This document shows, piece by piece, positions 13,101-13,652 of a stretch of DNA of 32,000 nucleotides. The stretch is from assembly GCA_030614005.1 (NCBI GenBank), contig JAUWKS010000001.1, positions 1-32,000 of the forward strand, given 5' to 3'. The notes below the pieces were generated by a model. It ran no database searches and was not told where the DNA came from. It saw nothing but the letters and a program-made list of their open reading frames with translations. The position numbers and the translations under genes are program-made. Source of the DNA: Candidatus Heimdallarchaeota archaeon (GTDB lineage: Archaea; Asgardarchaeota; Heimdallarchaeia; JABLTI01). Each line of letters begins with the position of its first letter. The first letter of the stretch is position 1.

Positions 13101-13652
13101 TTATGATTTTGTTTCGTACAATTTTTGAGTGCACACGGGACAATTCTTGTGAATCCGTATCCAAGCCAGCAAGTGTTCTTTGTGATAAACCGATTCACAT
13201 ACAGGACATTGTAGGATTTCATCCTTATTTTTAAAAGTCAATTTACAAACCATACAAAAATCATCTTTATTGAATGAAGTAGCTTCAATTGCAGAAACAA
13301 TTTCATTTGGAGTTATTTCTTTCTTTTTGCCTAAAGCAATAATTAATGCTTCTTGCACTCTTTCTTTGTAACGTTCTTGAGCTCTTTCGCGTTCCTCAGG
13401 AGAAGAAGCTGGTGCTCTGGCAGGTCGAACGGGACCTGGCTTTGATAAAGCTAGATAGATAATTAGAGCAACAAAAAGAACCAGTGCTCCAACAGCAGTG
13501 AAACCAAATGTGAAACCCACAAGAACCTGATTAATATCTTCAGGGTTTATCTCAATCACACCTACAGGTTGGATGAAATATAATATTAATCCCACAAATA
13601 ACGACATGACACCAATAGTTGTTAAAATCCTAATTACTTTAGTATCTCTCAT
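13101..13652 (-). CDS. Two-TM membrane protein with a C-terminal RING-type zinc finger (putative E3 ubiquitin-like ligase)
   Basis: TM helices at about aa 7-27 and 44-69, a Pro-rich linker, then C133-x2-C136...C149-x2-C152-x4-H157-x2-H160-x3-W164...C171-P-x-C174. The Trp and CPxC positions are RING hallmarks. Confidence 0.85.
   Translation of the reverse strand: MRDTKVIRILTTIGVMSLFVGLILYFIQPVGVIEINPEDINQVLVGFTFGFTAVGALVLFVALIIYLALSKPGPVRPARAPASSPEERERAQERYKERVQEALIIALGKKKEITPNEIVSAIEATSFNKDDFCMVCKLTFKNKDEILQCPVCESVYHKEHLLAWIRIHKNCPVCTQKLYETKS

Follow-up and report, generated by a model that had tools for sequence, protein, structure and literature searches.

A membrane-anchored RING protein with the features of a candidate E3 ligase in a Heimdallarchaeota-type Asgard archaeon

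The window analysed here is a stretch of 32,000 nucleotides at the start of contig JAUWKS010000001.1 from a Heimdallarchaeota-type Asgard genome of 3.6 Mb and 90% completeness. On its reverse strand, positions 13101-13652 hold an open reading frame with an ATG start that encodes a two-helix membrane RING protein of 183 amino acids (aa). The protein has 13 orthologs with 54-80% identity, all of the same length and all retaining the eight zinc ligands, W164 and the terminal CPVC. Its neighbours, among them an alcohol dehydrogenase and a solute-binding protein, vary between relatives, making the gene context uninformative on substrate, and no ubiquitin genes were found near the RING gene in eight loci. 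At 13099-13101, the RING gene and an Fe-alcohol dehydrogenase gene converge with a single base separating their stops, a junction kept in close relatives only; in the relative L022, a 177-aa secreted-looking gene (L022:5199-5732) is inserted there. On the other side, a 116-aa propeller-like fragment (13705-14055, forward strand) diverges from the RING gene with 52 bp between the starts. The fragment is without a paralog in the genome, relatives carry other genes at that place, and it is possibly a remnant. Further along, a 450-aa open reading frame (16947-18658) corresponds to residues 1-454 of its 725-aa ortholog in L022 and so may be split or truncated. A 927-aa LVIVD surface-protein gene occupies 22211-24994; in L027, this gene is found immediately upstream of the RING gene.

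The original prediction described two transmembrane segments, a Pro-rich linker, a charged helix and a RING, and the open reading frame, Pfam and the orthologs agree with this anatomy. All of the following features lie on the reverse strand. Membrane helix 1 spans approximately residues 9-27 (13572-13628), has a hydropathy of 2.36 and is modelled as a helix over residues 2-26 with a pLDDT of 74-88; with three K/R in residues 1-8, this helix and its basic N-terminus are read as a signal anchor. An acidic inter-helix loop (residues 28-43; 13524-13571) holds no K/R and three D/E, and is followed by membrane helix 2 at approximately residues 44-69 (13446-13523; hydropathy 2.68; helix 37-70 in the model). 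Next come a Pro-rich linker (residues 70-84; 13401-13445) with three K/R, apparent from the sequence and modelled at low pLDDT without secondary structure, and a charged helix (residues 85-107; 13332-13400), which is helical in the model, has a column identity of 0.83 and is a possible dimer or partner surface. Two linker lysines are conserved, K109 being invariant and K111 nearly so. The full-length AlphaFold2 model, built from 14 close sequences, gave a poor RING and a mean pLDDT of 58.7, and the helices alone were taken from it. Residues 1-120 returned no match in Pfam, the PDB or the ESM Atlas (the best being MARVEL, E 0.037), and the Atlas search gave leads under 0.9 only.

The original prediction had left the topology to be determined, and the positive-inside rule predicts that the RING is inside. 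Since K/R flank the helices and the loop has none, both ends of the protein are predicted to face the cytoplasm and the loop to lie outside. Across 55 two-helix family members, K/R per residue amounts to 0.23 before helix 1, 0.07 in the loop and 0.30 after helix 2. Seven loop residues (Q28, P29, V30, G31, P37, I40 and V43) are invariant among the orthologs, and the mean column identity of the loop (0.83) exceeds that of the helices (0.63 and 0.66), which suggests that the outside loop may be a binding site.

The RING finger itself (13131-13256) follows the pattern C-x2-C-x12-C-x2-C-x4-H-x2-H-x3-W-x6-C-P-x-C, with C133, C136, C149, C152, H157, H160, C171 and C174 as ligands, and is recognised by Pfam, by structural modelling and by fold matches. 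In addition to the ligands, it displays Trp164 four residues past ligand 6, P172 and a terminal CPVC of the CPxC type. Pfam assigned Prok-RING_1 with 31.1 bits (cut-off 29.1) and zf-RING_2 with 27.9 bits (cut-off 27.3). In the open reading frames of the genome, the strict motif was counted 15 times, against none in five residue-shuffled copies; together with the 13 orthologs, this rules out an artefact or chance motif. A model of the RING from 142 sequences reached a pLDDT of 85. The original prediction would have been refuted by a predicted fold without a cross-brace; the model matches the folds of E3 RINGs, with RNF24, RNF126, RNF165, RNF13, RNF12 and the HRD1 RING as the best matches by Foldseek and VIA-align and GATOR2 close behind. 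The E3 matches score Z 7.0-7.5 with an rmsd of 1.8-2.9 over 53-60 aligned residues, and while a Z below 8 is modest, under the VIA-align level of a clear match for a domain of this small size, the matches are of one kind throughout and concur with those found by sequence.

A comparison of homologs points to the zinc pairing. In nine of them, ligand 2 is replaced by Ser or Thr and ligand 6 by Tyr, and eight of these nine also lack ligand 5, with ligands 3, 4, 7 and 8 kept throughout. As the site-1 ligands vanish jointly in these homologs, which may be one lineage, a cross-brace pairing of ligands 1, 2, 5 and 6 with each other and of 3, 4, 7 and 8 is indicated: site 1 would comprise C133, C136, H157 and H160, and site 2 C149, C152, C171 and C174. 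Such half-RINGs, carrying CxxT/S and Tyr at ligand 6 and keeping site 2, the Trp and CPxC, were seen in P0082, P0085, P0093, P0106, P0118, P0132, P0143, P0147 and P0157. The source genome encodes a half-RING as well (L087, C93:9680-10600). The half-RINGs are a possible one-zinc, U-box-like intermediate.

The C4H2C2 ligand order was originally set against the canonical classes C3HC4, C3H2C3 and C4HC3. The idea of a pattern special to the 183-aa protein is rejected, as the source genome has 18 such RINGs and the pattern is the standard one of Asgard RINGs. It is best seen as C4HC3-type spacing with His at ligand 6. Exact C4H2C2 ligands are present in 147 of 163 collected proteins, and the finger was found in all 82 genomes of the class with 1-29 copies each. 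Among 150 full-motif matches, a set biased towards the query, the RING is preceded by two helices in 81, by one in 23 and by none in 43. E2 and UEV loci taken from 15 other Asgard genomes revealed a small RING beside ubiquitin in 13 clusters, mostly ordered RING-Ub-E2-E1 and otherwise RING-Ub-JAB-UEV. The finger spacing is identical in all 13 cluster RINGs and 12 of them are C4H2C2, with His at ligand 6. A Helarchaeota operon of Snf7, Vps4, ESCRT-II, RING, Ub, E2 and E1 encodes a C4H2C2 RING too. Profile-profile comparison relates the family of the 183-aa protein to the operon RINGs with a probability of 99.3% at 41% identity, and the two kinds of finger are kin.

The distribution of the finger also follows that of the E2 fold. 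Among 151 Asgard genomes, 109 carry both the RING profile and the E2 fold and 42 carry neither, with identical tallies per family, including one family in which one of four genomes carries both; this co-occurrence rests on approximately four lineage-level absences, concerns the RING family and not this copy, and uses an E2 profile that also matches inactive UEVs. In a RING tree of 54 columns, the 183-aa protein falls outside the operon RING group (support 90/98) and apart from the zinc-ribbon-RING receptors as well; the tree is weak, with unsettled bootstrap, and is not used to infer any succession of events. The operon RINGs (L058:4055-4300, L059:4073-4333, L064-L070) have a feature of their own, a strand RFxIxxVKVVGxWxW just before C1 that resembles the N-terminal strand with which Rbx1/Apc11 bind cullin. 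Among the PDB matches, only RBX1 chains align from profile position 4-6, at a weak E of 0.005-0.01, and no report of this likeness was found in the literature. In another Asgard genome, a RING-small GTPase fusion (L069:5744-6478, reverse strand) lies directly upstream of a RING-Ub-E2-E1 operon.

According to the original prediction, the window contains no ubiquitin, E1 or E2 gene, and indeed none adjoins the RING gene. The ubiquitin, E1, E2, JAB and ESCRT genes proposed for a genome-wide search are nevertheless all encoded, scattered on other contigs. There is one ubiquitin with a GG C-terminus (C123:22269-22511) and a single catalytic E2 (C29:4669-5142) with an HPN motif, the catalytic Cys and the RING-binding loops FPFKPP and WTPA. 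Three ThiF-family proteins are present, and the one on C91 (C91:4879-5880) aligns with operon E1s at E 1e-82 to 1e-110. The genome additionally encodes three JAB proteins, two Cys-less E2-fold proteins of the UEV type, Vps28, three Snf7 proteins and Cdc48, and the whole cascade is thus present. Besides the 18 C4H2C2 RINGs, profile searching brings the RINGs to 22-23, meaning that one catalytic E2 stands against approximately 20 RINGs. No other RING class, C3HC4 and C3H2C3 included, was found in this 90% complete genome. HECT and U-box searches of the genome likewise gave no match, but their controls were silent too, and absence is therefore not proven.

The RING repertoire of the genome is diverse. 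A tandem pair of two-helix RING genes lies on C24 (L088), with similarity to the 183-aa protein in the finger alone. Four receptor-like RINGs (L077, L078, L079 and L080 on C25, C31, C64 and C106) share a layout of a large N-terminal part, one membrane helix, a zinc ribbon and a C4H2C2 RING, their N-terminal parts being a beta-propeller, a solute-binding protein of family 5 or unassigned. Other fusions (L082, L083 and L084 on C9, C42 and C74) include TPR-RING and LRR-RING proteins and a protein with an N-terminal RING. Finally, C9:20428-20892 (forward strand) encodes a 114-aa soluble RING with part of the operon N-terminal strand; as the best operon-profile match of the genome, it is probably a displaced operon-type E3.

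Whether the 183-aa protein could work with the E2 depends on the surface of its RING. The hydrophobic E2-binding surface is conserved in the family at V135 (I/V in 97%), W164 (99%) and P172 (99%), and the E2-contact features tested in Caldiarchaeum subterraneum have their counterparts in V135, W164 and P172/V173, which 97-99% of the family retain. While the C. subterraneum residues I30 and W58 are thus kept as V135 and W164, its linchpin R69 corresponds to Thr175 (13128-13130, reverse strand), a position taken by Ser, Thr or Asn in orthologs and not by Arg. The cationic linchpin after the last Cys is consequently absent, a feature that is not strictly defining for RING E3 ligases. The C. subterraneum ligase is impaired by R69A (PMC5654768), minimal activity remains in RNF38 R454S (PMC12326332), and half of yeast and human RINGs are without Arg or Lys at the linchpin (PMC7667886). 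Among 13 operon RINGs, three have Arg at this position, two Lys and eight neither, and because most of these presumed working E3s lack the Arg, the Asgard E2 may do without it. The missing arginine suggests that any activity is probably modest, such as mono-ubiquitylation, or dependent on a dimer or partner. Modelling the complex with the cognate E2, as had been proposed, gave a docking score of 0.55 against 0.00 for the best control, which lends weak support; RING-E2 is a textbook pair, and the score may reflect memorisation by the model. The runs agree in 97% of contacts with a partner pLDDT of at least 78. Of 80 solved pairs 58 attained the docking mark, as did two of 110 mismatched pairs; those passing at 0.60 or below were seven solved pairs and both mismatched ones.

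Among known systems, the archaeal operon small RING finger protein (srfp) of C. subterraneum has served as an E3 in vitro (PMC5654768), as has the operon RING of Helarchaeia Hel_GB_B (10.1101/2023.07.25.550441). In the C. subterraneum RING, classed as C3H2C3, C3/H4 are displaced by two positions and an additional Cys probably coordinates zinc (PMC5654768), which we infer to be the same CxxC arrangement as the Asgard C4H2C2. The 13 Asgard operon RINGs compared have the finger spacing, the Trp and the CPxC in common with the 183-aa protein, and 12 of them the ligands too. The differences are that in the 183-aa protein a conserved linker and two membrane helices replace a short N-terminal strand, that it has an aromatic residue before H5 and no linchpin Arg, and that its gene stands alone and is not encoded with Ub, E2 and E1. 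The 183-aa protein is, in these terms, a variant of the small RING E3 already known from archaea, with a membrane anchor added.

Prok-RING_1 (PF14446), reportedly described by Burroughs, Iyer and Aravind in 2011, is matched above its curated cut-off by the protein and at E 0.01 by 141 of 142 family members. Bacterial proteins of this family are noted by Pfam to have membrane helices. Of the 54 model positions, only 5-33 are covered by the match, and prokaryotic RINGs are C4HC3 according to a review (PMC11354881), whereas the 183-aa protein has His160, not Cys, at ligand 6. Its spacer between ligands 6 and 7 is short, like that of eukaryotic RING-H2 and unlike that of Prok-RING_1.

Eukaryotic transmembrane RING-H2 ligases (RNF24, ATL/EL5, RNF13, HRD1 and gp78) provide the best PDB sequence and fold matches, with RNF24 at E 1e-8, and, like the protein with its predicted topology, have helices first and then a cytoplasmic C-terminal RING. 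However, S154 stands at the His4 and H160 at the Cys6 of RNF24, RNF126 and EL5, with C149, three residues upstream, replacing their second His ligand, and the finger is thus not C3H2C3. In MARCH/RINGv proteins, an N-terminal C4HC3 RING-CH precedes the helices, whereas here the RING is C-terminal with His at ligand 6 and x2/x4 spacing. The originally proposed likeness to MARCH, ATL and Hrd1 therefore stands for the architecture only: membership in these families is rejected, as the ligand sets differ and no homologous membrane or PA domain was detected. The soluble C4HC3 RING E3s listerin/Ltn1, FANCL and Nse1 are all on the fold list and have Cys at ligand 6, with listerin at E 2e-5 and FANCL at E 0.012 to the family profile. 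The spacing of ligands 3-6 in listerin and Nse1 is the same as in the Asgard finger. GATOR2/SEACAT proteins (WDR59, WDR24 and MIOS) carry the same C-x2-C-x4-H-x2-H-x3-W segment in human WDR59-type RINGs and score E 0.004-0.02 to the family profile and 4e-5 to the operon profile. Their RINGs sit at the end of large coatomer-like proteins, coordinate additional zinc and serve as dimerisation modules (PMC9646525). In the openly available literature, neither membrane-anchored Asgard RINGs nor C4H2C2 as the Asgard type were found, and the term C4H2C2 was met for the LSD2 finger only.

This GATOR2 likeness speaks against a ligase. WDR59-type RINGs with the identical ligand pattern are structural in the SEA complex, where the RINGs dimerise (PMC9646525), and their fold matches the model at Z 6.5 with an rmsd of 2.0 over 56 aligned residues. 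The RING of the 183-aa protein may accordingly be a structural module that pairs with another RING of the genome and holds a membrane complex together or activates a partner, with little ligase activity of its own; the missing linchpin Arg, the persistence of nine homologs without zinc site 1 and the strong conservation of the helix preceding the RING are in line with this. Yet W164 and P172 are kept at 99% in the family, even in degenerate members, the presence of the RING family parallels that of the E2 fold throughout the phylum, and active E3 RINGs head both the sequence and the fold matches, leaving a structural role unlikely. The same surface residues without the linchpin Arg would also suit a protein that binds E2 without activating it, acting at the membrane as a tether or competitor and gathering E2~Ub there for other ligases, as might be imagined where approximately 20 RINGs share one catalytic E2. 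Such a role appears somewhat less likely still, since most operon RINGs are without the Arg too and the Asgard E2 may not need it. Lastly, the PHD-like C3-x2-C4-x4-H5 spacing and weak PHD and C1 matches (E 0.04 and 0.004) could hint at a treble-clef finger that binds peptide or lipid and is unrelated to ubiquitin. This is very improbable, as the helix with Trp four past ligand 6 and the CPxC are RING features, the best 50 Foldseek rows are all RING E3s or RING-bearing complexes with no PHD, and the finger was never seen in genomes without the E2 fold among the 151 Asgard genomes.

The 183-aa protein is probably a membrane-anchored RING E3. The machinery, the fold and the operon-type finger support the original prediction of an Asgard membrane-anchored RING E3-like protein, and the absent linchpin arginine counts against it. 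In the proposed mechanism, a monotopic-loop membrane protein with two helices and both ends in the cytoplasm would use its C-terminal cross-brace RING to recruit the ubiquitin-loaded catalytic E2. Ubiquitin would then be passed to lysines on membrane proteins close by or on the RING protein itself (K109 and K111), catalysis and substrates being assumed from relatives. The tagged protein might be read by UEV-Vps23, Vps28 and ESCRT-III, or be extracted by Cdc48 for the proteasome, a fate likewise assumed from relatives. More tentatively, Asgard archaea may possess a membrane-anchored ligase layer, formed by fusion of membrane anchors with the operon RING, that marks membrane cargo for a ubiquitin-reading ESCRT. 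The 183-aa protein could be its minimal form, finding a substrate or partner by its outside loop, and C4H2C2 could be the ancestral pattern, which GATOR2-type RINGs would have retained and RING-H2 changed.

The gene is not rare, being one of hundreds alike, and the larger receptor-like members are more striking. Reconstituted Asgard ubiquitin cascades and the ubiquitin-binding ESCRT-I homolog have involved small soluble RINGs only, and a candidate of 183 residues with its cognate E1, E2 and ubiquitin in one genome offers a cheap test system. In vitro ubiquitylation with this set would bear on whether a C4H2C2 RING is active without a linchpin arginine, and on whether the ubiquitylation of membrane proteins predates eukaryotes.
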